From UHGV virus genome UHGV-0136520: a stretch of DNA of 28,383 nt. One strand, 5' to 3'. This stretch comes from a virus. How positions within the stretch are numbered: position 1 is the stretch's first letter; every line of letters begins with the position of its first letter. The notes beneath the pieces are model-generated. The model did not search any database. It saw only the letters and a list, made by a program, of their open reading frames with translations, and was not told the origin of the DNA. This document shows positions 311 to 10,108 of the stretch, one piece after another. The translations under genes were made by a program, and so were the position numbers.

Positions 311-883
311 TTACAGATCGCTGCTGGTGGCCGGAATCAACTTCTTCCAGATCGCGGACACGTATTTTGCCTGATGGCGCGCATCGGCCAGTGCGTTATG
401 TGCGACCCCATCGAATGGCATGTCTCGCTTAGGGTCGAAACCCACAACTCTGCCTAATGTAACGATGGTTCTGACGTCGTGATCATCCCAAAATTGCCAC
501 GGGCAAACCTGGCCGGCGCGCTCATATGCTCCGCGTAATATAACGTTGTCGAAAGTAGCTCCATTGCCCCAAACCTTTAAATATTTAGGGTTATCAGAAT
601 GCCGATTAATGAAATGGCTAAGTTCAGATAGGGCAGACGATATTGGCAGAGAATCATCAACACAGATTGCTGATCGTGCTTCTGGGCTTTGTCTTAACCA
701 CCACAGAATAGTGTCACCATCCGGCACTGCTCCCTGATCCATAGCACTTTCAAGATTAACGGCGGTGTAAAACTCCTGACCCAGTTCACCGCTTTGCGGA
801 TCGAAGAACACGGCACCAATGGAGACGATAGGGGCATTCGGTTTTTTGCCCATGGATTCAAGGTCGATCATTAAATTGTTCAC
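311..883 (-). CDS. Phage DEDD-type 3'-5' exonuclease (DnaQ-like fold), 190 aa
   Basis: Track ORF. Motifs MIDLESMG (Asp/Glu of exo motif I), WGNGATFD and HNALADARH (His/Asp of exo motif III) fit a DEDDh exonuclease. Start sits 2 nt from the upstream gene stop. Confidence 0.55.
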   Translation of the reverse strand: MNNLMIDLESMGKKPNAPIVSIGAVFFDPQSGELGQEFYTAVNLESAMDQGAVPDGDTILWWLRQSPEARSAICVDDSLPISSALSELSHFINRHSDNPKYLKVWGNGATFDNVILRGAYERAGQVCPWQFWDDHDVRTIVTLGRVVGFDPKRDMPFDGVAHNALADARHQAKYVSAIWKKLIPATSSDL

Positions 884-884
884 G

Positions 885-1355
885 TTAAAAATTCTCCTGT
901 TTTGGTGCTGTTTTTAGCATTGCGGCGCGGCAGGCGTTCCATCCCCTGACTTCTGCGATTGCAGCTACAGCATCAATCGCATGCATTTTCGACGCTTCTG
1001 GCATCGGCTTTTCATCCGGTACTACTGGCGCTGGAGGGGCGGTGTAGAGTGGAATTGTTTTGTATTCTGCCACGCCCGTTTTTCGTTCTTGATTCCATTC
1101 ATCAACCCAGCCGTCTACGACATTTTTGCAGGTTGATACGGCGTCGGTGTCCAGGTTGACTCCCTGCATTGCATACAGAACGGGCTCAGCACCACACGAT
1201 GCAATCACCCCAGCAATCACCTTCACAGCATCAGCCATTGCGTAGCCGAGATTACCGCCGTCGCTTTGTGCTGCTGCTTTGCTGAGTATTTCGCTTATCT
1301 GGTGCAGGCGATCGAGTGATACAGGACCGTTCGCCGGGTGGTTGTTAGTTGTCAT
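885..1355 (-). CDS. Hypothetical phage early protein, 156 aa
   Basis: Track ORF tightly packed between neighbours (4-nt and 2-nt gaps). No recognisable catalytic motif. Confidence 0.5.
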   Translation of the reverse strand: MTTNNHPANGPVSLDRLHQISEILSKAAAQSDGGNLGYAMADAVKVIAGVIASCGAEPVLYAMQGVNLDTDAVSTCKNVVDGWVDEWNQERKTGVAEYKTIPLYTAPPAPVVPDEKPMPEASKMHAIDAVAAIAEVRGWNACRAAMLKTAPKQENF

Positions 1356-1358
1356 GGG

Positions 1359-1553
1359 TTAGTCCTCCCAATCCCATACGGCAAAAGCATGGTCATCATC
1401 GCAATCAATTTCGCCTTTCTCGCCACACTCTGAGCAAACCACACCATCGCCAGCATAGAGGAATTCTGGAGTGCCTTTATCTGTGTGCACGTCGAGTTCA
1501 TCACTGTCACATTTGGGGCAAAAACCTGCCCATTTGATTCTTAACACGGTCAT
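1359..1553 (-). CDS. Small Cys-rich zinc-ribbon-like protein, 64 aa
   Basis: Two CxxC pairs (CPKC and CSEC). Start placed at ATG 1553-1551, which follows the upstream stop 1557-1555 by one base (TGA-t-ATG). The track ORF extends to 1619 (86 aa) as an alternative start. Confidence 0.4.
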   Translation of the reverse strand: MTVLRIKWAGFCPKCDSDELDVHTDKGTPEFLYAGDGVVCSECGEKGEIDCDDDHAFAVWDWED

Positions 1554-1554
1554 A

Positions 1555-1731
1555 TCAATCACCCCATTCTTCATAAAAGAAGTCATCAACGCGCTTTTGC
1601 GCCTCGTACGCGGCTTCAATTTCCATTTCAGTGATATCGAAATTTTTACCGTTCAGCTCCACCATGCACTCAAGAGCCTCACCCCAATCCTGAAGCGATG
1701 AGTTACGTTTTGTTGCGCTAAAATCTGCCAT
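1555..1731 (-). CDS. Small acidic hypothetical protein, 58 aa, absent from ORF track (below 60 aa)
   Basis: Hand translation of minus strand: MADFSATKRNSSLQDWGEALECMVELNGKNFDITEMEIEAAYEAQKRVDDFFYEEWGD. SD GGGGGAG lies 4-5 nt upstream. Its start is one base after the upstream gene stop and its own stop abuts the next start, indicating translational coupling. Confidence 0.4.
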   Translation of the reverse strand: MADFSATKRNSSLQDWGEALECMVELNGKNFDITEMEIEAAYEAQKRVDDFFYEEWGD

Positions 1732-1732
1732 C

Positions 1733-2260
1733 TCACTCCCCCTTCACGCCAATGCCAGCGGCGCGGAGTGCTTCTATGAAAACATCAAGCCCCTGATTAA
1801 ATCCGATAGCCTCATAAAACTGTTTTGTGTGCATGTCCGGTGAATTGCGATATTCGGGCAGCTTCACCGTCCGCGCCTCCAGTTCTGCTATGCGCTGCCG
1901 AGCAGACTGATAAGCATCGATAACCACGTCCAACAATTGCCCGTCACACAGCAGTTTGCTAAGTTCAGGCTTCCACGCTACACAGTCATCATCCGGGTCC
2001 TGCATGTTGTAGACGTAAGTATCAAAAGCACCCATAAAGCGCCCGAATCCACCTTTGTCGTCTACAAGCACTTGCCAGGCGCGGAGAAGAAACAGTTTTT
2101 GGTTACGATCTAAATCCGTTCGGGATAGCTCATCGGCGATAATGCTGATTTCACTACCGTGCCAGCGAGCATCGTTGCGTTGCGCCGCATGAAACAATTT
2201 CCAGAAATACTCGGTTTCTTTCTGGTCAGGGCGGCATTGCTTAATTGTATGGACTGTCAT
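1733..2260 (-). CDS. Hypothetical phage early protein, 175 aa
   Basis: Track ORF. Start chosen at ATG 2260 (MTVHTIK), which has GGAG about 9 nt upstream, rather than the track's GTG at 2269. Confidence 0.5.
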   Translation of the reverse strand: MTVHTIKQCRPDQKETEYFWKLFHAAQRNDARWHGSEISIIADELSRTDLDRNQKLFLLRAWQVLVDDKGGFGRFMGAFDTYVYNMQDPDDDCVAWKPELSKLLCDGQLLDVVIDAYQSARQRIAELEARTVKLPEYRNSPDMHTKQFYEAIGFNQGLDVFIEALRAAGIGVKGE

Positions 2261-2288
2261 GCTGCACACTCCTGTTTGTTGTGTGCTG

Positions 2289-2543
2289 TCATTGGGCTGC
2301 TCCTTGTCTGGCTCTGCTCAAGAGCTGGTTAAACATCATGGTTAGGCTGTTACTACACCCAAACGGCATATCGTTAACACGGTAAGTAGGAATTCCCTTG
2401 CGAACACCAGACTTCACGATCCGGCCGGTGCCATAGAGTTGCGATAATGCGCCAGCGACCGCGGGTGTCTTTTTGTTCATACCTTTGGCGATTTCACCGC
2501 TGGTGGTATTCGGATGAGCCTGGAGATATTCAAATACGGTCAT
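2289..2543 (-). CDS. Putative winged-helix DNA-binding protein, 84 aa
   Basis: Track ORF. Segment TSGEIAKGMNKKTPAVAGALSQLYGTGRIV looks like an HTH recognition helix plus wing. Its ATG overlaps the upstream stop (ATGA). Confidence 0.45.
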   Translation of the reverse strand: MTVFEYLQAHPNTTSGEIAKGMNKKTPAVAGALSQLYGTGRIVKSGVRKGIPTYRVNDMPFGCSNSLTMMFNQLLSRARQGAAQ

Positions 2544-2716
2544 GGCGTTTTACCTTTACGTTCCTGTTCCAGTTGCACCAGAGACTCTTTTAATGCTGCG
2601 AACGTAGCGTCCAGTCTGGTGGCGACTTCGCGCATAAGCGGTGCATGTTTTGGTGGTAATTCAGCAACGGAGGCAAAAGCCTCCGCTACGAGCTCTTTTA
2701 CCTTCATGCGGCGCAT
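2540..2716 (-). CDS. Small hypothetical protein, 58 aa, absent from ORF track
   Basis: Hand translation: MRRMKVKELVAEAFASVAELPPKHAPLMREVATRLDATFAALKESLVQLEQERKGKTP. GGAG lies 8 nt upstream. Start overlaps the end of the HD-protein gene and the stop overlaps the next ATG (ATGA). Confidence 0.4.
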   Translation of the reverse strand: MRRMKVKELVAEAFASVAELPPKHAPLMREVATRLDATFAALKESLVQLEQERKGKTP

Positions 2717-3243
2717 TGGCGCTGCTCCATCAACTCGTTAAAGCGATTCATGAACATGCCGTATGACTGGCCTGGACGAACTGGGTTGATGATGAATAAA
2801 TCCGTTGGGATAACTCCCTGGAGGCAAGGCCACACAGAACCTTCGTCAATCTCAAAATCGCGGCGTTCGCTGGCGAGCATCACCAAATCGGCATATTTAA
2901 CGGTCGGGTGTTGCTCCGTTGGCAGGCCAAATTTCTGACGAATAGCAGCGTCTACGCGAGTTTCGATCACCTGGTAATCCGGTAACAGGCGCTTAAGCGG
3001 AGAGGGAATATCCTGCAAGTAGGCTTCGGCTGCATCATGAAGCAGTGCTTCTAATGCAAACTCCTGCGGGACGAGGTGGCTGGTTAAAACGCTATGTTGG
3101 CCGACGCTGTAAAACTCAGGTAGATGCCCTGCAAAGCGGCATAAGTGAGACAGCGCAGTAGCGATATCCTCGATCACGATATCGTCCTGTTGGATATCGA
3201 GGTAATTAAAGTGTTTGCCGGATAATGTCTGAATGTAGCTCAT
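2704..3243 (-). CDS. HD-domain phosphohydrolase (YfdR-like 5'-deoxynucleotidase family), 179 aa
   Basis: HD-domain signature: conserved His residues (ALSHLCRFAGH, HSVLTSH) followed by the HD dyad in LLHDAAEAY. Start chosen at ATG 3243 with GGAG 8 nt upstream. Confidence 0.65.
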   Translation of the reverse strand: MSYIQTLSGKHFNYLDIQQDDIVIEDIATALSHLCRFAGHLPEFYSVGQHSVLTSHLVPQEFALEALLHDAAEAYLQDIPSPLKRLLPDYQVIETRVDAAIRQKFGLPTEQHPTVKYADLVMLASERRDFEIDEGSVWPCLQGVIPTDLFIINPVRPGQSYGMFMNRFNELMEQRQCAA

Positions 3244-3335
3244 GGTTTTCTCCATATTGGCGCGCTGCACCGCGCAGATTTTGGTTGCACGAATCCCTCG
3301 CCGGGTGGCGATAATTAATGGAATTACGCTTCAAT

Positions 3336-3359
3336 AAATCCCCGCGGCGCCGGGGATTT
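3336..3359. repeat. Perfect 24-bp palindrome between the YfdQ-like and HD-protein genes
   Basis: AAATCCCCGCGGCGCCGGGGATTT is fully self-complementary. It sits in the 100-bp spacer inside the leftward operon. Confidence 0.4.
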
Positions 3360-3371
3360 AATGCAGAGCAA

Positions 3372-4199
3372 TTAGGCTTTAAAGTTACCGATGAAAGTTT
3401 CCACTGATTCACCGTCGAACTTGCTGATCAGCAAATCGCGGAATTCGTTGGCGATCGCTTCTTCCTGTGCTTCCAGTTGGACGATGCGCAGAACAAAGCA
3501 GGGTTCATCGCTGGTCAGCAGGCTGTTACGCAAGCTAAAACGGCGTTCGCCCAGACCTTCATACGGCACACATTTGAATTCAAACGCCACAGGCATTACG
3601 TCTTTGCTGCTTGCTTCAACGCTTTGCATCAGGGATTTTTTACCAGCGAAATCACTAGTTTCATGGTCCTGCTGGGTTGCTTGTTGAATGGTGATACGAC
3701 GCACAGCCTGAGCCGCCTGGGAAATCTGCATCGTATTGCCATCAGCATCAAACGCCAGCAGGTAATCGCTCCAGTCTTCCAGCCATTCAGCAATTTGCTT
3801 TTGCTTCAGACGTTGACCATCGATCTGCAGTAACGCGCGGAACGGGGCGGTTTTCTTCAGGGTGATTGAAGCAACGTTATCGGCGTGACCGGGATTATCC
3901 AGGGTGCCGATATTGAACACTGAACGGGCGGTCATGTTGTCAGCGTCAATGAAGCAACGAGCTGGCTCACTGTCGCTGGCGTAACCTTTAGAATAACGTG
4001 CGAAGTCGTCAATACTGGTTGTTGTCATTGCACCACGGAAGCGGAAACGCTCCAGAGAAAAGCGCTCAAGGCTTTCAACGTTAGTACCATCTGGCAGCAA
4101 TGCGGTCGGGCAAGCCAGGCCATGAATATCATTCAGGTGGTAGCCAGAAAGGACCAGGTCTTTTACCTGCTGAAATGTACCGCTGTCTAACTGAGACAT
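3372..4199 (-). CDS. YfdQ-like prophage protein (DUF2303-type), 275 aa
   Basis: Track ORF. Length and sequence match my recollection of E. coli CPS-53/KplE1 prophage YfdQ (about 274 aa). Sits next to the YfdR-like HD protein, as in that prophage. Confidence 0.55.
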   Translation of the reverse strand: MSQLDSGTFQQVKDLVLSGYHLNDIHGLACPTALLPDGTNVESLERFSLERFRFRGAMTTTSIDDFARYSKGYASDSEPARCFIDADNMTARSVFNIGTLDNPGHADNVASITLKKTAPFRALLQIDGQRLKQKQIAEWLEDWSDYLLAFDADGNTMQISQAAQAVRRITIQQATQQDHETSDFAGKKSLMQSVEASSKDVMPVAFEFKCVPYEGLGERRFSLRNSLLTSDEPCFVLRIVQLEAQEEAIANEFRDLLISKFDGESVETFIGNFKA

Positions 4200-4255
4200 A
4201 GAAATTCCTTATTAACTGATGATCGAAGTGGTATCAGTGAGTTTGTTGTTGCGGA

Positions 4256-4627
4256 TCACTGAGCCGCTTTAAGCTTTCCATCCACCGCGCCAGTGATCCC
4301 GAACAGCTGACCCTGATCTTCCTGCAGGATAGTGAGCTTCCCCCCTTTGTTGACCCACATCGGGGTTTCGGTTGTGTCCTCTTCGGAGGCTTTACCACGC
4401 GGTGTCGGGGTGCTGTAGTTCAGCTTGTGCTTGATCTTGACGCGCTTCTCTTCAACGGAATTACCCATACGCTCAAAATCAAATGTGAGGACTACTTTGC
4501 CTTTGTTGCCGTTGTTCAGAACGCCAAGCGCGGTGGTATTAAGTGCTGCCGCGATTTTGTTCATGAACACGCCGGCATCCAGTTCGCCAAGAAAATCTGG
4601 CACTACGGTCATGCGGTCATTACTCAT
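4256..4627 (-). CDS. Hypothetical early protein, 123 aa (YfdP-like by position)
   Basis: Track ORF with SD GAGGGT 6 nt upstream of ATG 4627. First credible gene of the leftward operon. No N-like arginine-rich motif. Confidence 0.45.
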   Translation of the reverse strand: MSNDRMTVVPDFLGELDAGVFMNKIAAALNTTALGVLNNGNKGKVVLTFDFERMGNSVEEKRVKIKHKLNYSTPTPRGKASEEDTTETPMWVNKGGKLTILQEDQGQLFGITGAVDGKLKAAQ

Positions 4628-5960: not shown

Positions 5961-6671
5961 TTACAGTTTATTGTAAGCTATTGATTCATGGAGCAGAGCT
6001 TTACCCATGATATACAGTTGATCCTGATTTTCTTCAGTTATATACCAGTCTTTGTACACTGGATTATCGGACAGGACTGCAAGCTGCAAGCCCTGCATTT
6101 GTAATCGCTTCACGTGGAAGTGTTGTCCGAAAACGAACGCATAAACACCGTCCACCTTGAAATTTCTTATCGAAATATCGAAAAACAACCTGTCACCAGA
6201 CTGGATGGTTGGGCACATGCTGTCGCCATCTACAGTCATTACTTTAACATCATCCTGAGAACGATTCCCGAAGAGTGAACGAGCGTGCTCAGTAGTGAAC
6301 TCAATAGCGTGTAGAACCTCAACAAACTCAGAAATCATGAAAGACCCTGGACCTGCGCTCACAGTAAGATCGAGAACTTCTACACGATAAGTGTCGATAT
6401 TGCGGGCGGGTACATCAATATCCATATTTGAGGTTGGGCCAAGACCATCCAACCATCCTCTGCTGATTTTCAAAGCATCTTCGATCTGCCGAGCCGCTTG
6501 CTCACCAATATTCCGCTTATTAGGTTTACCAACAGGGTAAAGCATCCGAGAGACAACAGTCGGATCAAGCCCTGCATTTTCAGCAAACTCTTTCTGGGTT
6601 TTATAGCGAGTTACCAACTCCTGAAGTTTGAGGCGTCGTAACTCGAAGATGTCAGGCGATTCAGTTTTCAT
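5961..6671 (-). CDS. cI: CI-type prophage repressor (N-terminal HTH, C-terminal S24 LexA-like autopeptidase), 236 aa
   Basis: C-terminal domain carries the Ser nucleophile context GDSM (DGDSMCPT) and the Lys in HVKRL, typical of S24 peptidases. Divergent from a Cro-like gene across an operator-rich spacer. Confidence 0.8.
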   Translation of the reverse strand: MKTESPDIFELRRLKLQELVTRYKTQKEFAENAGLDPTVVSRMLYPVGKPNKRNIGEQAARQIEDALKISRGWLDGLGPTSNMDIDVPARNIDTYRVEVLDLTVSAGPGSFMISEFVEVLHAIEFTTEHARSLFGNRSQDDVKVMTVDGDSMCPTIQSGDRLFFDISIRNFKVDGVYAFVFGQHFHVKRLQMQGLQLAVLSDNPVYKDWYITEENQDQLYIMGKALLHESIAYNKL

Positions 6672-6770
6672 AATTCCATCTTACTTAAATTTACTTCAAG
6701 GTAAATGACTTGTGAGTATTGACATGTATTTACTTAAAGGTATATTTAATTTCCAAACATAGGAGGCGTG
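6672..6770. promoter_or_regulatory. Immunity operator/promoter region (OR-like) with a rightward PR-like promoter
   Basis: Repeated imperfect palindromes TTTACTTCAAGGTAAA (6690-6705) and TTTACTTAAAGGTATA (6729-6744), plus a partial copy at 6681-6693. PR-like -35 TTGACA (6719-6724), 16-nt spacer, -10 TATATT (6741-6746). AGGAGG at 6761-6766 precedes the cro-like ATG. Confidence 0.55.
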
Positions 6771-7013
6771 ATGGAAACGTTAAGAAATTACCTAAACGCT
6801 TTGTCGCTCGAAAAACAGAGAGAATTTGCAGCACGATGCGAAACCTCTCTTGAGTACCTGCGTAAAGCCATTAGCAAAAAGCAAAAGTTGGGAGCTGCTC
6901 TATCTGTTTCTATCGAAACACAATCTGGCGGCTCAGTTAGTAGAAAAAATCTTCACCCGGATGATTGGGAAAAGATTTGGCCTGAACTGGAGCATAAAAA
7001 AACAGCGGCATGA
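6771..7013 (+). CDS. Cro-like small HTH regulator, 80 aa
   Basis: First gene rightward of the operator region. ATG 6771 follows SD AGGAGG. Small protein with an HTH-like segment (ARCETSLEYLRKAISKKQKL). Confidence 0.5.
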   Translation: METLRNYLNALSLEKQREFAARCETSLEYLRKAISKKQKLGAALSVSIETQSGGSVSRKNLHPDDWEKIWPELEHKKTAA

Positions 7014-7041
7014 AAGTAACCACAGAATTAAGGGGTTAACC

Positions 7042-7593
7042 GTGGGTAACGAACCTATTTGGAAAGTCGAGCGTCAGCCTTCCTGGCTGGTGGTAGCGAT
7101 TAAAAAAACGATTACCGATCTGCCTGGTGGATATGCTGAGGCGGCGGAATGGTTGGGCGTGACAGAGAACGCATTGTTTAACCGCCTTCGTGTTGACGGC
7201 GACCAGATCTTCCCACTGGGCTGGGCAATGGTTTTACAACGTGCTGGTGGTTCAACTCATATAGCTGATGCTGTCGCGCGCCATTCTCAGGGCGTATTTG
7301 TACCGCTGGCAGACGTTGATGATCTGGATAACGCCGATATAAACCAGCGCCTGATGGAGTCCATTGAATGGATAGGTCGTCATTCTAATTTTGTACGTAA
7401 AGCCACGGCTGATGGGGTAATTGACGCAGATGAGCGTGCTCAGATTGAGGAAAACAGCTATCAGGTTATCGCGAAGTTCCAGGAGCACGTAACGCTTCTT
7501 TATCGAGTTTTTTGTGTCGCTGAAAAGAGTGACGCCCGCGAGTGTGCAGCTCCGGGCGCCTTGGCGAACAACTCTTCGAGTATGGAGAAATAA
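7042..7593 (+). CDS. CII-like regulatory protein (phage CII/CP76-type), 183 aa
   Basis: Second gene of the rightward operon. Start placed at GTG 7042, 5 nt after AAGGGG, because the longer track ORF (from 6826) would fully overlap the cro-like gene. Family assignment is from memory and uncertain. Confidence 0.4.
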   Translation: MGNEPIWKVERQPSWLVVAIKKTITDLPGGYAEAAEWLGVTENALFNRLRVDGDQIFPLGWAMVLQRAGGSTHIADAVARHSQGVFVPLADVDDLDNADINQRLMESIEWIGRHSNFVRKATADGVIDADERAQIEENSYQVIAKFQEHVTLLYRVFCVAEKSDARECAAPGALANNSSSMEK

Positions 7594-7765
7594 TCCGCAT
7601 GAGCAGTTTAACGGCTTTTAACCGTCTACCGCAACTAAGGATGATCCCGGTTTCGGGTACTCCGTTGTTTCGGTATGAACGCAGATTATCAAACCGCTGG
7701 GTTCCGTGTAACCACAGTAGGGCGGTTTCAATTGTGGGGGTCTACAACCGGAGGGCAAAACGCCT

Positions 7766-7945
7766 GTGCGCGAACTTAACCGAAGGTTCAAAGACCACCG
7801 CGGAGTGCAAGTCCGTGTTATCCGCTGGGAGCCAGAAACACAGCGCGTTATCTATCTGCGTGATGGCTACCCACACGAATGCTTCAGCCCACTTGAGCAT
7901 TTCAGGCAAAAGTTCAGGGAGATAACGGACGATCATGAGCACTAA
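7766..7945 (+). CDS. Small hypothetical protein, 59 aa, absent from ORF track
   Basis: GTG start 7766 preceded by GGAGGG. Product MRELNRRFKDHRGVQVRVIRWEPETQRVIYLRDGYPHECFSPLEHFRQKFREITDDHEH. Its stop overlaps the start of the replication gene by 11 nt. Preferred over the low-complexity 127-aa track ORF 7542-7925 in another frame, but both are uncertain. Confidence 0.25.
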   Translation: MRELNRRFKDHRGVQVRVIRWEPETQRVIYLRDGYPHECFSPLEHFRQKFREITDDHEH

Positions 7946-8792
7946 ATTAACCGGCTACGTATGGGATGGTTGCGCGGCGTCGGGCATGAAGTTGTCTAGT
8001 GTCGCGATCATGGCTCGCCTCGCTGATTTCAGCAGCGATGAGGGAGTGTGCTGGCCGTCCATTGAAACTATTGCTCGCCAGCTTGGCGCAGGGCCTAGCA
8101 CGATCAGAACGGCAATCGCAAAGCTTGAAAAAGATGGCTGGCTCACGCGTACACAGCGCCGTAATGGTAACCGTAATGCGTCGAACGTGTACCGCCTGAA
8201 TGTGGCGAAACTTCAGGCTGCCGCATTTTCTCAACTGTCAGATTCTGACACGTCAAAATCTGACGCATCAAAATTTGACGCCTCAAAAACTGACCCGTCG
8301 AAATCCGTCAAAAACGGCGGTTTTGACCCGTCAGAATCTGGCGGGGATCCGTCAGTAAAATCAAAACAAGATCCACAAGTAACTTCAAAACCCTCTTGTC
8401 CGGTTGCGGCGCAACCAGACCCTGAAGTCGTGATTACTGATCAGGCAATTTTGGTTCTGACCCATTTGAACCAGATCAGCGGATCCCGGTATCAGAAATC
8501 CAAAACATCCCTAGAGAACATCCGTGCCCGACTGCGTGAGGGATACAGCGTTGCAGACCTGCAACTGGTTATCGACCTGAAGCATGAGCACTGGCACGAG
8601 AACGACGAGCAGTACCAGTACATGCGCCCGGAAACGCTGTTCGGCCCGAAGAAATTCGAGAGCTATCTGCAAAGCGCTACCCGCTGGGAGCAGAAGGGAC
8701 GGCCTAAACGCGCTGACTGGGGTGCGAAAAAGCGCGATGTGATGGCTTTTGGTCCGGTTGATACAACGATTCCAGAGGGGTTCAGAGGATGA
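7935..8792 (+). CDS. Replication initiator protein (O-like; N-terminal HTH, conserved phage C-terminal domain), 285 aa
   Basis: N-terminal winged-HTH-like region. Central region carries DNA iterons. C-terminal region resembles the conserved C-terminus of phage replication proteins. Position matches lambda O. Confidence 0.6.
   Translation: MSTKLTGYVWDGCAASGMKLSSVAIMARLADFSSDEGVCWPSIETIARQLGAGPSTIRTAIAKLEKDGWLTRTQRRNGNRNASNVYRLNVAKLQAAAFSQLSDSDTSKSDASKFDASKTDPSKSVKNGGFDPSESGGDPSVKSKQDPQVTSKPSCPVAAQPDPEVVITDQAILVLTHLNQISGSRYQKSKTSLENIRARLREGYSVADLQLVIDLKHEHWHENDEQYQYMRPETLFGPKKFESYLQSATRWEQKGRPKRADWGAKKRDVMAFGPVDTTIPEGFRG
8246..8362. repeat. Origin-like iteron array inside the replication initiator gene
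   Basis: Tandem 15-bp direct repeats TGACACGTCAAAATC, TGACGCATCAAAATT, TGACGCCTCAAAAAC, TGACCCGTCGAAATC (8246-8305), then degenerate copies (CGTCAAAAAC, TGACCCGTCAGAATC, CGTCAGTAAAATC) and an A-rich stretch. Mirrors ori-lambda lying within O. Confidence 0.55.
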
Positions 8793-10108
8793 CGTTAAAC
8801 AAATATTGCCAGGCGTTGGCGGCACTACGCAGCCAACCAGCCCACGAATTGAGAGAAGTTGGCGATCAGTGGCGGACACCGGATCTGCTTTTCTGGGGTA
8901 TTAACGCGCTATTTGGGCCATTAGTTCTGGACTTGTTTGCTGACGACGACAACGCGAAGTGCCCGGCATGGTACACCGCCGAAGATAATGCGCTGACGCA
9001 GGACTGGTCTGAACGTCTTACAGAACTGGGTGGCGCCGGTTATGGCAACCCACCGTATAGCCGTTCGCAGTATCACGAGAAACAGGCGATCACCGGCATG
9101 ACGCACATCATGAACTACGCAGCAGCCCAGCGCGAGAAGGGCGGTCGCTATGTATTCCTGATAAAAGCCGCGCCGAGTGAAAAGTGGTGGCCCGAAGATG
9201 CCGATCACATTGTATTCATTCGCGGGCGCATTGGGTTCGATCTGCCTGTGTGGTTTGTACCTGCTGACGAAAAACAGAAGCCCACCAGCGCGTTTTTTGC
9301 CGGTGCTATAGCTGTATTCGATAAGTCATGGCGTGGTGAGCGGTTCAGCTATATCAACCGTACAGAACTGGAGGCAAAAGGGCGGGCGTTTATGACTTTG
9401 GCGCAATTTGCTGCCAGCAAGTCTCAACCTGCAACTGCCACACCATCTGTAGCTGACAAGCCAGAAGCAGAGTTGCCACTTACCCAGAAAGATATTTTTG
9501 ATATCAGCGGTGTCGAGGCGTGGGCATGCGTTAGAGCTGCGTTCGGCGATAAAGAAGAATACACATTCAGTGAATCGAAGTTTGGGCATACCTGGGCGGC
9601 GGATTCTGTCGAAGCACCGGAATTCACTCAGGTATCACCATTAACGATCGACAAAGCGAAGCTGCTTATTCGTGAGAGTATTTTGTTCGGTGTGGATGAG
9701 TGGCTGTTGTCGATTGAATTCGATGACGCTGCTGCGCGCCTGGATATGTCGGAACGTATTCGGACTGTTGCCCTTGAAGCATCTGGTGAATATGGCATGA
9801 ACAGTACTGATTTCATTGCAGCTATGGGAAGCCTGGATGTTTCCAGTTGGTCCAATATTCGCCAGATCCGCATGCACATCCGTGAGAAAGCTAAACCAGT
9901 ATCGGATCCGCTTCCCGAGTCCCGTATCTGGCCGCTGGAGGTTGGAATTGTATTCGACCAGGTAGACGGCGCTGACATGCTGGATGAATCACAGCAGAAC
10001 AAGCTGAAAGCCAACATCAATCAACTCTGGCTGGAGCGGACTGCCACCAGCGAAATCATTACTGCTGCTTCTGAACTTGTTCGCAATATGCGGGGAGAGG
10101 CTGCGTGA
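8789..10108 (+). CDS. Phage DNA N6-adenine methyltransferase (Dam-type, NPPY motif) with an uncharacterised C-terminal extension of about 240 aa, 439 aa total
   Basis: N-terminal WRTPDLLF and catalytic GNPPYS motifs are typical of the phage Dam family. The C-terminal half has no motif I recognise. ATG overlaps the upstream stop (ATGA). Confidence 0.7.
   Translation: MTLNKYCQALAALRSQPAHELREVGDQWRTPDLLFWGINALFGPLVLDLFADDDNAKCPAWYTAEDNALTQDWSERLTELGGAGYGNPPYSRSQYHEKQAITGMTHIMNYAAAQREKGGRYVFLIKAAPSEKWWPEDADHIVFIRGRIGFDLPVWFVPADEKQKPTSAFFAGAIAVFDKSWRGERFSYINRTELEAKGRAFMTLAQFAASKSQPATATPSVADKPEAELPLTQKDIFDISGVEAWACVRAAFGDKEEYTFSESKFGHTWAADSVEAPEFTQVSPLTIDKAKLLIRESILFGVDEWLLSIEFDDAAARLDMSERIRTVALEASGEYGMNSTDFIAAMGSLDVSSWSNIRQIRMHIREKAKPVSDPLPESRIWPLEVGIVFDQVDGADMLDESQQNKLKANINQLWLERTATSEIITAASELVRNMRGEAA

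Follow-up and report, generated by a model that had tools for sequence, protein, structure and literature searches.

The stretch of DNA analyzed here (the window), 28,383 nucleotides (nt) of the virus genome UHGV-0136520, covers the early and late region of a lambdoid prophage, and our analysis concerns a block of short tandem repeats, or iterons, located within the replication initiator gene of this prophage. The repeat block occupies the part of the gene that encodes the linker between the two domains of the protein, and it is very probably the phage replication origin, laid out as in lambda. The features of the gene are listed below; those to which no strand is assigned are marked as unstranded.

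7935-8792, + strand: replication initiator gene, 285 amino acids (aa), with an N-terminal winged-helix domain, a repeat-encoded linker, and a C-terminal helical domain (from the open reading frame (ORF), Pfam, and PHROGs)
8001-8144, + strand: region encoding the HTH_36 winged-helix motif, the presumed iteron-recognition domain (Pfam; its synonymous diversity is normal)
8226-8420, unstranded: proposed replication origin, where constraint acts at the DNA level (synonymous diversity)
8237-8249, unstranded: first dyad site (half-site) GTCAGATTCTGAC, in the GTCA-N5-TGAC register, just 5' of the tandem array and invariant across homologues
8244-8303, + strand: four abutting 15-bp iterons, TCTGAC-NCN-TCAAAA (Tandem Repeats Finder, motif search, position matrix)
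8244, + strand: iteron unit TCTGACACGTCAAAA
8259, + strand: iteron unit TCTGACGCATCAAAA
8274, + strand: iteron unit TTTGACGCCTCAAAA
8289, + strand: iteron unit ACTGACCCGTCGAAA
8304-8327, unstranded: degenerate unit with a small palindrome, GTCAAAAACG-G-CGGTTTTGAC
8321-8359, unstranded: nearly invariant 39-nt block TTTTGACCCGTCAGAATCTGGCGGGGATCCGTCAGTAAA, which includes a conserved GATC at 8346 and, at 8321-8335, an iteron copy that is perfect when read on the - strand
8346-8391, + strand: a pair of 22-nt repeats that begin with GATC, at 8346-8367 and 8370-8391 (24 bp apart), which are degenerate iteron-like units
8351-8392, unstranded: A-rich tract of low stability, candidate DNA-unwinding element (least stable 30- and 40-bp windows of the gene)
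8398-8420, unstranded: palindrome GTCCGGTTGCG-G-CGCAACCAGAC, at the joint of the N-module (with the repeats) and the C-module, common to three module combinations
8454-8672, + strand: region encoding the Phg_2220_C domain, a presumed interaction domain of the replisome-organizer type (Pfam; PHROG; structure model)
8670-8789, + strand: C-terminal 40 residues, ending in ...KRDVMAFGPVDTTIPEGFRG, like the C-terminal end of host DnaT (pairwise BLASTP)

The repeat array and its host gene

Tandem Repeats Finder delimits the array at 8244-8305, with a period of 15, 4.1 copies, 78% matches, and a score of 75, which makes it the strongest tandem array of the window; all others score 38 or less. When the motif TCTGACNNNTCAAAA was searched with up to two mismatches, eight matches were obtained, all of them within 8228-8336, against 2.38 expected in the whole window, and none of 100 shuffles reached that number. 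A position matrix built from 118 units indicates that positions 4, 5, 10, 11, and 14 are invariant and that positions 7 and 9 are free. Conservation is periodic, with 12 fixed positions and a variable central NCN in each 15-bp unit. An earlier sequence-only reading of this DNA had described four near-perfect tandem 15-bp repeats; the array is real, and the term near-perfect applies to just 12 of the 15 positions. The approximately three degenerate copies that it mentioned could be located at about 8232, 8346, and 8370, and the perfect copy at 8321-8335 lies on the opposite strand. Its limits for the element, 8246-8362, are narrower than the constrained stretch, which extends from about 8226 to 8420.

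The array can also be read in an alternative register, as 13-bp dyads GTCA-N5-TGAC that begin at 8237, 8252, 8267, 8282, and 8330 and that recur within the array at a 15-bp spacing, which corresponds to about 1.4 helical turns. The number of iteron copies is 3, 4, 5, or 7 across homologues, and it differs even among close relatives. As had also been proposed, the repeats encode a repetitive protein linker, since the four units are in frame in ORF 7935-8792 and are translated as SDTSK-SDASK-FDASK-TDPSK (an SDxSK linker).

Three further elements accompany the iterons. The 39-nt block at 8321-8359 has a synonymous diversity of 0.05 and is near-invariant even in Yersinia phage YeP1, whose protein is 64% identical. 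The A-rich stretch noted from the sequence was corroborated: positions 8355-8392 are 68% A+T, and A makes up 53% of the + strand there; 8351-8390, directly 3' of the repeats, is the least stable duplex segment of the gene (z = 2.4 relative to the whole window). The palindrome at 8398-8420 (GTCCGG...CCGGAC), whose hairpin energy is modest (z = -1.6), is common to the window, Salmonella phage F1055, and Shigella phage SfIV, which represent three combinations of N- and C-modules; its counterparts are at 2556-2578 of record L007 and at about 3460-3485 of record L002. This palindrome may belong to the origin, act as a recombination joint, or combine the two roles. At the same position, YeP1 has a different sequence that is still partly palindromic.

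The GATC sites at 8346 and 8370 are kept in most homologues. Within 140 bp (8346-8485) there are five GATC sites; the window average predicts about 0.6. The enrichment is a local cluster only, given that GATC is not over-represented across the whole window (121 found, 111 expected).

The protein encoded by the gene matches Pfam HTH_36 at aa 23-70 (E 4.5e-12; 46.0 bits, cutoff 25) and Phg_2220_C at aa 174-246 (E 1.3e-23; 83.3 bits, cutoff 27). With both domains above the Pfam cutoffs, we assign the gene, by sequence similarity, to the phage initiators that combine HTH_36 and Phg_2220_C. PHROGs 428, 391, and 11896 match the initiator with E values of 4e-81, 5.6e-71, and 6.2e-50, under the labels primosomal protein, replication initiation protein, and replication initiation O-like, and the C-terminal domain matches a PHROG labeled "DnaD-like helicase loader" (E 1.3e-8). 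The gene had been called O-like, a description that is adequate as a functional label and does not extend to the family, as the window protein has no match to Phage_rep_O (PF04492, the lambda O family) at E values up to 0.01; P22 gp18 matches that family at E 6.9e-38. Among the Pfam plasmid Rep families none was above threshold, RP-C (E 0.0023) being under its cutoff, and a sequence search of the PDB returned, for the N-domain, weak MarR-type matches only. The AlphaFold single-sequence model has a mean pLDDT of 54.6, with confident helices in the C-domain (pLDDT 80-90) and, at low confidence, no secondary structure for aa 103-162. Among the matches listed, 120 homologous proteins are all at least 99% identical to the query.

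Selection on the DNA and association of the repeats with the N-domain

Phage records and viral contigs yielded 85 homologues of the gene, and 29 of them, each more than 3% different in the N-domain, were used for the codon alignment. The diversities along the gene are the following.

N-domain: synonymous 0.44-0.49, amino-acid 0.07-0.13
Repeats: synonymous 0.11, amino-acid 0.25
8307-8369: synonymous 0.05, amino-acid 0.19
Up to 8414: synonymous 0.11, amino-acid 0.33
Start of the C-domain: synonymous 0.35, amino-acid 0.31

Over 8226-8414, the amino-acid diversity (0.19-0.33) is higher than in the N-domain, while the synonymous diversity drops. The median synonymous diversity per column is 0.00 in the element and 0.50 in the N-domain (Mann-Whitney p = 5e-19). 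The same trend is observed when the window is compared with ten distant homologues, which present 36-48 synonymous differences in 68-90 comparable codons of the N-domain and only 3-7 in 36-52 comparable codons of the element (8226-8420). Codon choice within the units also departs from that in the rest of the genes: Asp is encoded by GAC in 95 of 103 cases inside the units and in 179 of 366 elsewhere, Lys by AAA in 100 of 100 and 219 of 376, and Ser by TCA or TCT in 182 of 199 and 150 of 621, respectively. These results indicate that the element, about 8226-8420, is selected as DNA, independently of the protein that it encodes.

As a positive control, we used gene 18 of P22, for which GenBank annotates a rep_origin at codons 118-166. 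Among eight diverged relatives, its synonymous diversity is 0.09 in the origin, against 0.42 and 0.39 in the N-domain and the C-part, respectively, and the amino-acid diversity of the origin is 0.26. The P22 origin and the window gene carry the same signature of sequence variation. The synonymous-site test, with P22 as its control, offers a simple and general route to origins hidden within genes.

The comparison of initiators with different domain combinations indicates that the repeats belong to the N-domain. In SfIV-type phages, the N-module and its repeats are as in the window and the C-domain is different, with homology stopping at about 8374-8420. Salmonella phage F1055 presents the reciprocal case, since it has the C-module in common from about 8387-8395, an unrelated N-domain, and, in the same place, four 23-bp repeats of another sequence. 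In four more distant HTH_36 initiators, the winged helix is immediately followed by repeats peculiar to each. Those of Klebsiella, Stx2a_F451, and Vibrio are dyads, three to four in number and spaced by about 21-24 bp; Aeromonas has a 38-nt repeat in two copies at a spacing of 45 bp. These repeats are found at 2227-2292 of L090 (Stx2a_F451), 2219-2309 of L088, 2202-2267 of L091, and 2269-2351 of L089. The Klebsiella initiator gene is followed by a lambda-P-like gene and that of Stx2a_F451 by a primase-helicase gene. P22 gene 18 contains four dyad repeats of 20-24 bp plus an A-rich tract. Each of the seven initiator classes compared (window, F1055, Klebsiella, Aeromonas, Stx2a_F451, Vibrio, and P22) has its own repeats, and within the class of the window, conservation covers the iteron core as well as the N-domain. 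The N-module and its repeats move together, different N-domains bringing different repeats that are always placed just after the DNA-binding domain. Lambdoid phages are known for this very pattern, the N-terminal part of O recognizing the iterons and the C-terminal part contacting P (PMC6022878), and gp38 of SPP1 similarly binds repeats inside its own gene (PMC6316719).

The origin proposal, known systems, and alternative explanations

We estimate at roughly 80% the probability that the stretch at about 8226-8420 is a lambda-style origin embedded in the initiator gene, an activity that we infer from sequence comparisons. Four characteristics of the in-gene origins of lambdoid phages were found here: at least three dyad-symmetric sites between the two domains of the initiator, an A+T-rich tract that is easily melted, selection on the DNA as such, and a repeat sequence specific to the type of N-terminal domain. 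According to this proposal, the N-terminal winged-helix domain would bind the dyad-symmetric sites (core TCAAAATCTGAC, read as GTCA-N5-TGAC), of which there are four to five good ones, one every 15 bp, plus the degenerate ones. The resulting nucleoprotein complex would destabilize the adjacent A-rich tract at 8351-8392, where the duplex would unwind, and the C-terminal part of the protein (Phg_2220_C and a DnaT-like tail) would bring in the host DnaB-DnaC. The use of the host DnaB-DnaC is proposed because the phage encodes no loader or helicase. A wrapped complex like that of lambda should not be assumed, because the 15-bp spacing differs from the 20-24 bp of lambda, P22, and other classes.

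In-gene origins are already known in lambda and SPP1 (PMC6022878, PMC7466680, PMC6316719), and the arrangement found here is the expected one. In lambda and in the Stx phages 933W and P27, ori-lambda lies within gene O (PMC6022878, PMC7466680). The resemblance of the window to this layout, already pointed out in the sequence-only reading, was borne out by the position of the repeats between the two domains, their periodic conservation, the low-stability tract, the selection on the DNA, the P22 signature, and the different repeats of initiators with other N-domains. As in ori-lambda, the origin would be in the middle of the gene, in the part for the linker that joins the N-terminal DNA-binding domain to the C-terminal recruitment domain (PMC6022878, PMC7466680), and would consist of dyad-symmetric initiator-binding repeats, predicted in our case, followed by an A+T-rich unwinding tract, for which we have a candidate; the number of iterons also differs between relatives, being 4 in lambda and 6 in Stx phages (PMC6022878, PMC7466680). 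Unlike lambda O, the window initiator has no Phage_rep_O domain. Its sites of 13-15 bp occur every 15 bp, whereas those of lambda are dyads of 18-19 bp about 20-24 bp apart; its A-rich tract is less extreme than that of lambda (PMC6022878); and no P-type loader gene follows it, its neighbors being a Dam-type methyltransferase and RusA.

P22 gene 18 resembles the window gene in several ways: its four repeats precede an A-rich tract and occupy the same relative position in the gene, and synonymous diversity is low in the origin (0.09) relative to about 0.4 in the flanks. The full-length similarity of the two proteins is weak (19% identity, pairwise E 1e-4), and P22 differs in that gp18 belongs to the Phage_rep_O family, a DnaB-type helicase gene of the phage itself (gene 12) follows, and the iteron period is 20-24 bp. 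The window also resembles oriL of SPP1, within gene 38 for the replisome organizer gp38, where direct repeats lie inside the gene next to an AT-rich unwinding element (PMC6316719), and, through the matches of its C-terminal domain to "DnaD-like helicase loader" families, the DnaD-like organizers of phages of Gram-positive bacteria. SPP1, which was likened by description, has a second origin, a dedicated loader (gp39), a helicase (gp40), and a host from a different phylum. Iteron plasmid origins (review, PMC4980987) likewise combine an array of direct repeats beside an A+T-rich region with a winged-helix initiator; unlike those of the window, plasmid iterons are normally located outside the rep gene. 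With DnaT, the primosomal protein I of E. coli, the window initiator has only the tail in common.

Several observations weigh against the proposed origin or temper the strength of its evidence. The A-rich tract is just 68% A+T, and the intergenic regions of the window are less stable; no DnaA boxes are present in or near the element, nor is the whole window enriched in them; and the 15-bp spacing sets neighboring sites on nearly opposite faces of the helix. The homologues share descent, which makes the p-values overstate independence, and the P22 origin is annotated, according to its record, "by similarity with lambda". The N-domain is poorly resolved, with low confidence, in the AlphaFold model, and a Foldseek comparison of this model with the PDB gave nothing at E values of 0.001 or below.

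The constraint tests indicate that the DNA is selected and not for which purpose. The conserved repeats could be bound by the initiator or by some other protein and have a regulatory role (autorepression, a roadblock to transcription, control of copy number by handcuffing, or exclusion of related phages), with the true origin elsewhere, or, in a variant of this explanation, they could form a structure in the mRNA or in single-stranded DNA. A weak promoter-like match overlaps the units, and the array has a strong fold in single-stranded DNA, owing to its dyads (z = -4.9). We consider this explanation improbable, since the window has no other repeat array or comparable candidate origin, and since the position, the A-rich neighbor, and the signature of the element match those of the annotated in-gene origin of P22. 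Moreover, Rfam 15 gave only two chance-level matches over 6600-9200 (E 0.23 and 0.34), far below the gathering score; the scan for internal promoters and terminators gave none above chance (2 promoter-like matches, 1.1 expected); and a single long stem cannot account for conservation with a 15-bp period. It is quite improbable, too, that the low synonymous divergence reflects recent recombination at the boundary of mosaic modules, the linker having no sequence-specific function. The region is exactly at the joint of the exchangeable N- and C-modules, and the palindrome at 8398-8420 is present in three module combinations, as this explanation would have it; nonetheless, recombination should lower all types of differences, and the amino-acid diversity is instead above that of the N-domain. 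Changes are restricted to particular positions of each unit, the copy number varies among homologues, and the YeP1 initiator, at just 64% amino-acid identity, retains the invariant core.

The remaining two explanations attribute the pattern to coding. If the repeats were the by-product of a low-complexity SDxSK linker grown by slippage, any selection would act on the protein; the in-frame units that encode a segment rich in Ser, Asp, and Lys, the lack of secondary structure at aa 103-162 in the low-confidence model, and the variable copy number agree with this idea. It is nevertheless very improbable, given that third codon positions are nearly frozen while the amino acids vary, that the choice of Ser, Asp, and Lys codons in the units is sharply unlike that in the rest of the same genes, and that the constraint runs on through non-repetitive sequence to 8420. 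An overlapping gene is scarcely credible as the source of the synonymous constraint. Two such ORFs are present in the window (8200-8358 on the + strand and 8143-8286 on the - strand), and the alternative frame of the + strand is open across the repeats in all homologues. Its start codon, however, is not conserved (several homologues have no ATG, and the upstream limits are at 45-125 codons), and it stops at 8358, whereas the constraint reaches about 8420; the - strand frames hold stops in the window and in several homologues. The overlapping ORFs were rejected for their lack of a conserved start and their wrong extent.

Helicase recruitment, distribution, and prophage setting

No gene for a loader (P) or a helicase (gp12) is found directly downstream of the initiator gene, and the larger ORFs of the left arm that were scanned gave none either. 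In a pairwise BLASTP, the last 40 residues of the initiator align with DnaT end-to-end at the C-termini (43% identity, E 2e-4), and both proteins terminate in IPxGFRG. DnaT chains were the top matches in the PDB, at non-significant E values of 0.14-1.2, and 3 of the 4 matches to a profile of the tail (E 0.23-1.2), which is suggestive only. The tail is carried by about 80 of the 85 homologues, whatever their C-domain, and is missing from three initiators that precede a loader or helicase gene. The likeness is confined to the C-terminal tail, as the window protein has no match to the DNA-binding domain of DnaT (PF17948). DnaT is a restart factor thought to recruit DnaB-DnaC (PMC5778457, PMC13377028), and the DnaT papers examined do not state a role for its extreme C-terminal tail. 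Mimicry of this tail as a route to the host helicase may be regarded as a lead, not a finding.

A tentative proposal, which we consider rather unlikely as a whole, is that the initiator gene forms a one-protein replication module with compact 15-bp sites, DnaT-tail mimicry for the host helicase, and possible control by GATC/Dam methylation. Here, the mimicry is invoked because the phage has no loader of its own, and the conserved GATC pair beside the phage Dam gene might add the methylation control. If this were true, one unit being equal to five codons, in-frame changes in the number of sites (3-7 observed) would alter the strength of the origin and the length of the linker together.

Among 5426 complete E. 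coli genomes, 1848 have a match to the element, always inside a gene with a generic name, and the element marks one of the commonest prophage replication modules of enterobacteria. In genome records, the initiator gene is named "conserved phage C-terminal domain-containing protein", "GntR family transcriptional regulator", or "helix-turn-helix domain-containing protein", and no origin was annotated in the annotated records of this initiator family that were examined. We found no published description of the origin of this family; the SfIV genome paper mentions neither iterons nor an origin. These results are useful mainly for annotating a prophage family that is carried by about one in three complete E. 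coli genomes. A 2022 survey of Shiga-toxin ("Eru") phages stated that the replication of the non-lambdoid types bearing HTH_36 is not understood (PMC8951638), and the in-gene repeats of Stx2a_F451 are a candidate origin for Stx phages of the HTH_36 type.

In an E. coli K-12 derivative, the iteron array in full, together with the 39-nt block and the palindrome, is present inside the pseudogene yfdO of KplE1/CPS-53 (3444-4151 of record L173, to be compared with window positions 8190-8440). This pseudogene has no N-terminal DNA-binding domain, which would make it an orphan copy of the putative origin. Knowing where the origin is located would help to judge whether a prophage can still replicate, K-12 KplE1/CPS-53 being a case in which the putative origin is kept and the DNA-binding domain is lost. 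A link to oriJ of the Rac prophage, suspected from the coordinate of the match, was rejected, as the match is yfdO in KplE1/CPS-53 of a rearranged MG1655 derivative. The element was also detected on a few records filed as plasmids (CP085522.1, 41 kb; NZ_CP146678.1, 64 kb; NZ_CP104632.1, 101 kb), which could be phage-plasmids, prophages in plasmids, or misfiled chromosomes.

The genes that surround the initiator gene are the following.

311-4627, - strand: yfdP/Q/R-like gene block of the left arm
311-883, - strand: 3'-5' exonuclease-like gene
2704-3270, - strand: HD-domain YfdR-like gene
3372-4199, - strand: DUF2303 YfdQ-like gene
5961-6671, - strand: S24-peptidase repressor gene
After the repressor gene, in order: cro-like gene, CII/CP76-like gene, DUF4222 gene (7766-7945), initiator gene (7935-8792)
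After the initiator gene, in order: Dam-family methyltransferase gene (8789-10108), RusA, KilAC antirepressor, DUF968/HNH protein, Q antiterminator

The DUF4222 gene overlaps the start codon of the initiator gene (ATGAGCACTAA). Its DNA is kept together with the N-module in SfIV-like phages, where the megablast match begins at 7763, and the upstream ORFs annotated in these phages have no DUF4222 match. The Dam-family methyltransferase has a C-terminal extension of about 240 residues (window 9380-10108) with no Pfam match, and a methylase gene is next to or near the initiator gene in LLS, phiNP, 716R3, YeP1, and F1055 as well. The K-12 protein YfdR reportedly binds DnaA and inhibits the interaction of DnaA with DnaB (PMC4776307), and its counterpart may matter to a phage without a loader of its own.

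Citrobacter freundii genomes have an annotated protein identical to the initiator, and near-identical ones occur in Salmonella and E. coli. The nearest named relatives are E. coli phage LLS, Shigella phages SfII and SfIV, Citrobacter phage phiNP, and Yersinia phage YeP1. Very probably, the prophage is a lambdoid one of the KplE1/CPS-53-SfV type that has its origin, at about 8226-8420, in the linker-coding part of its own initiator gene.

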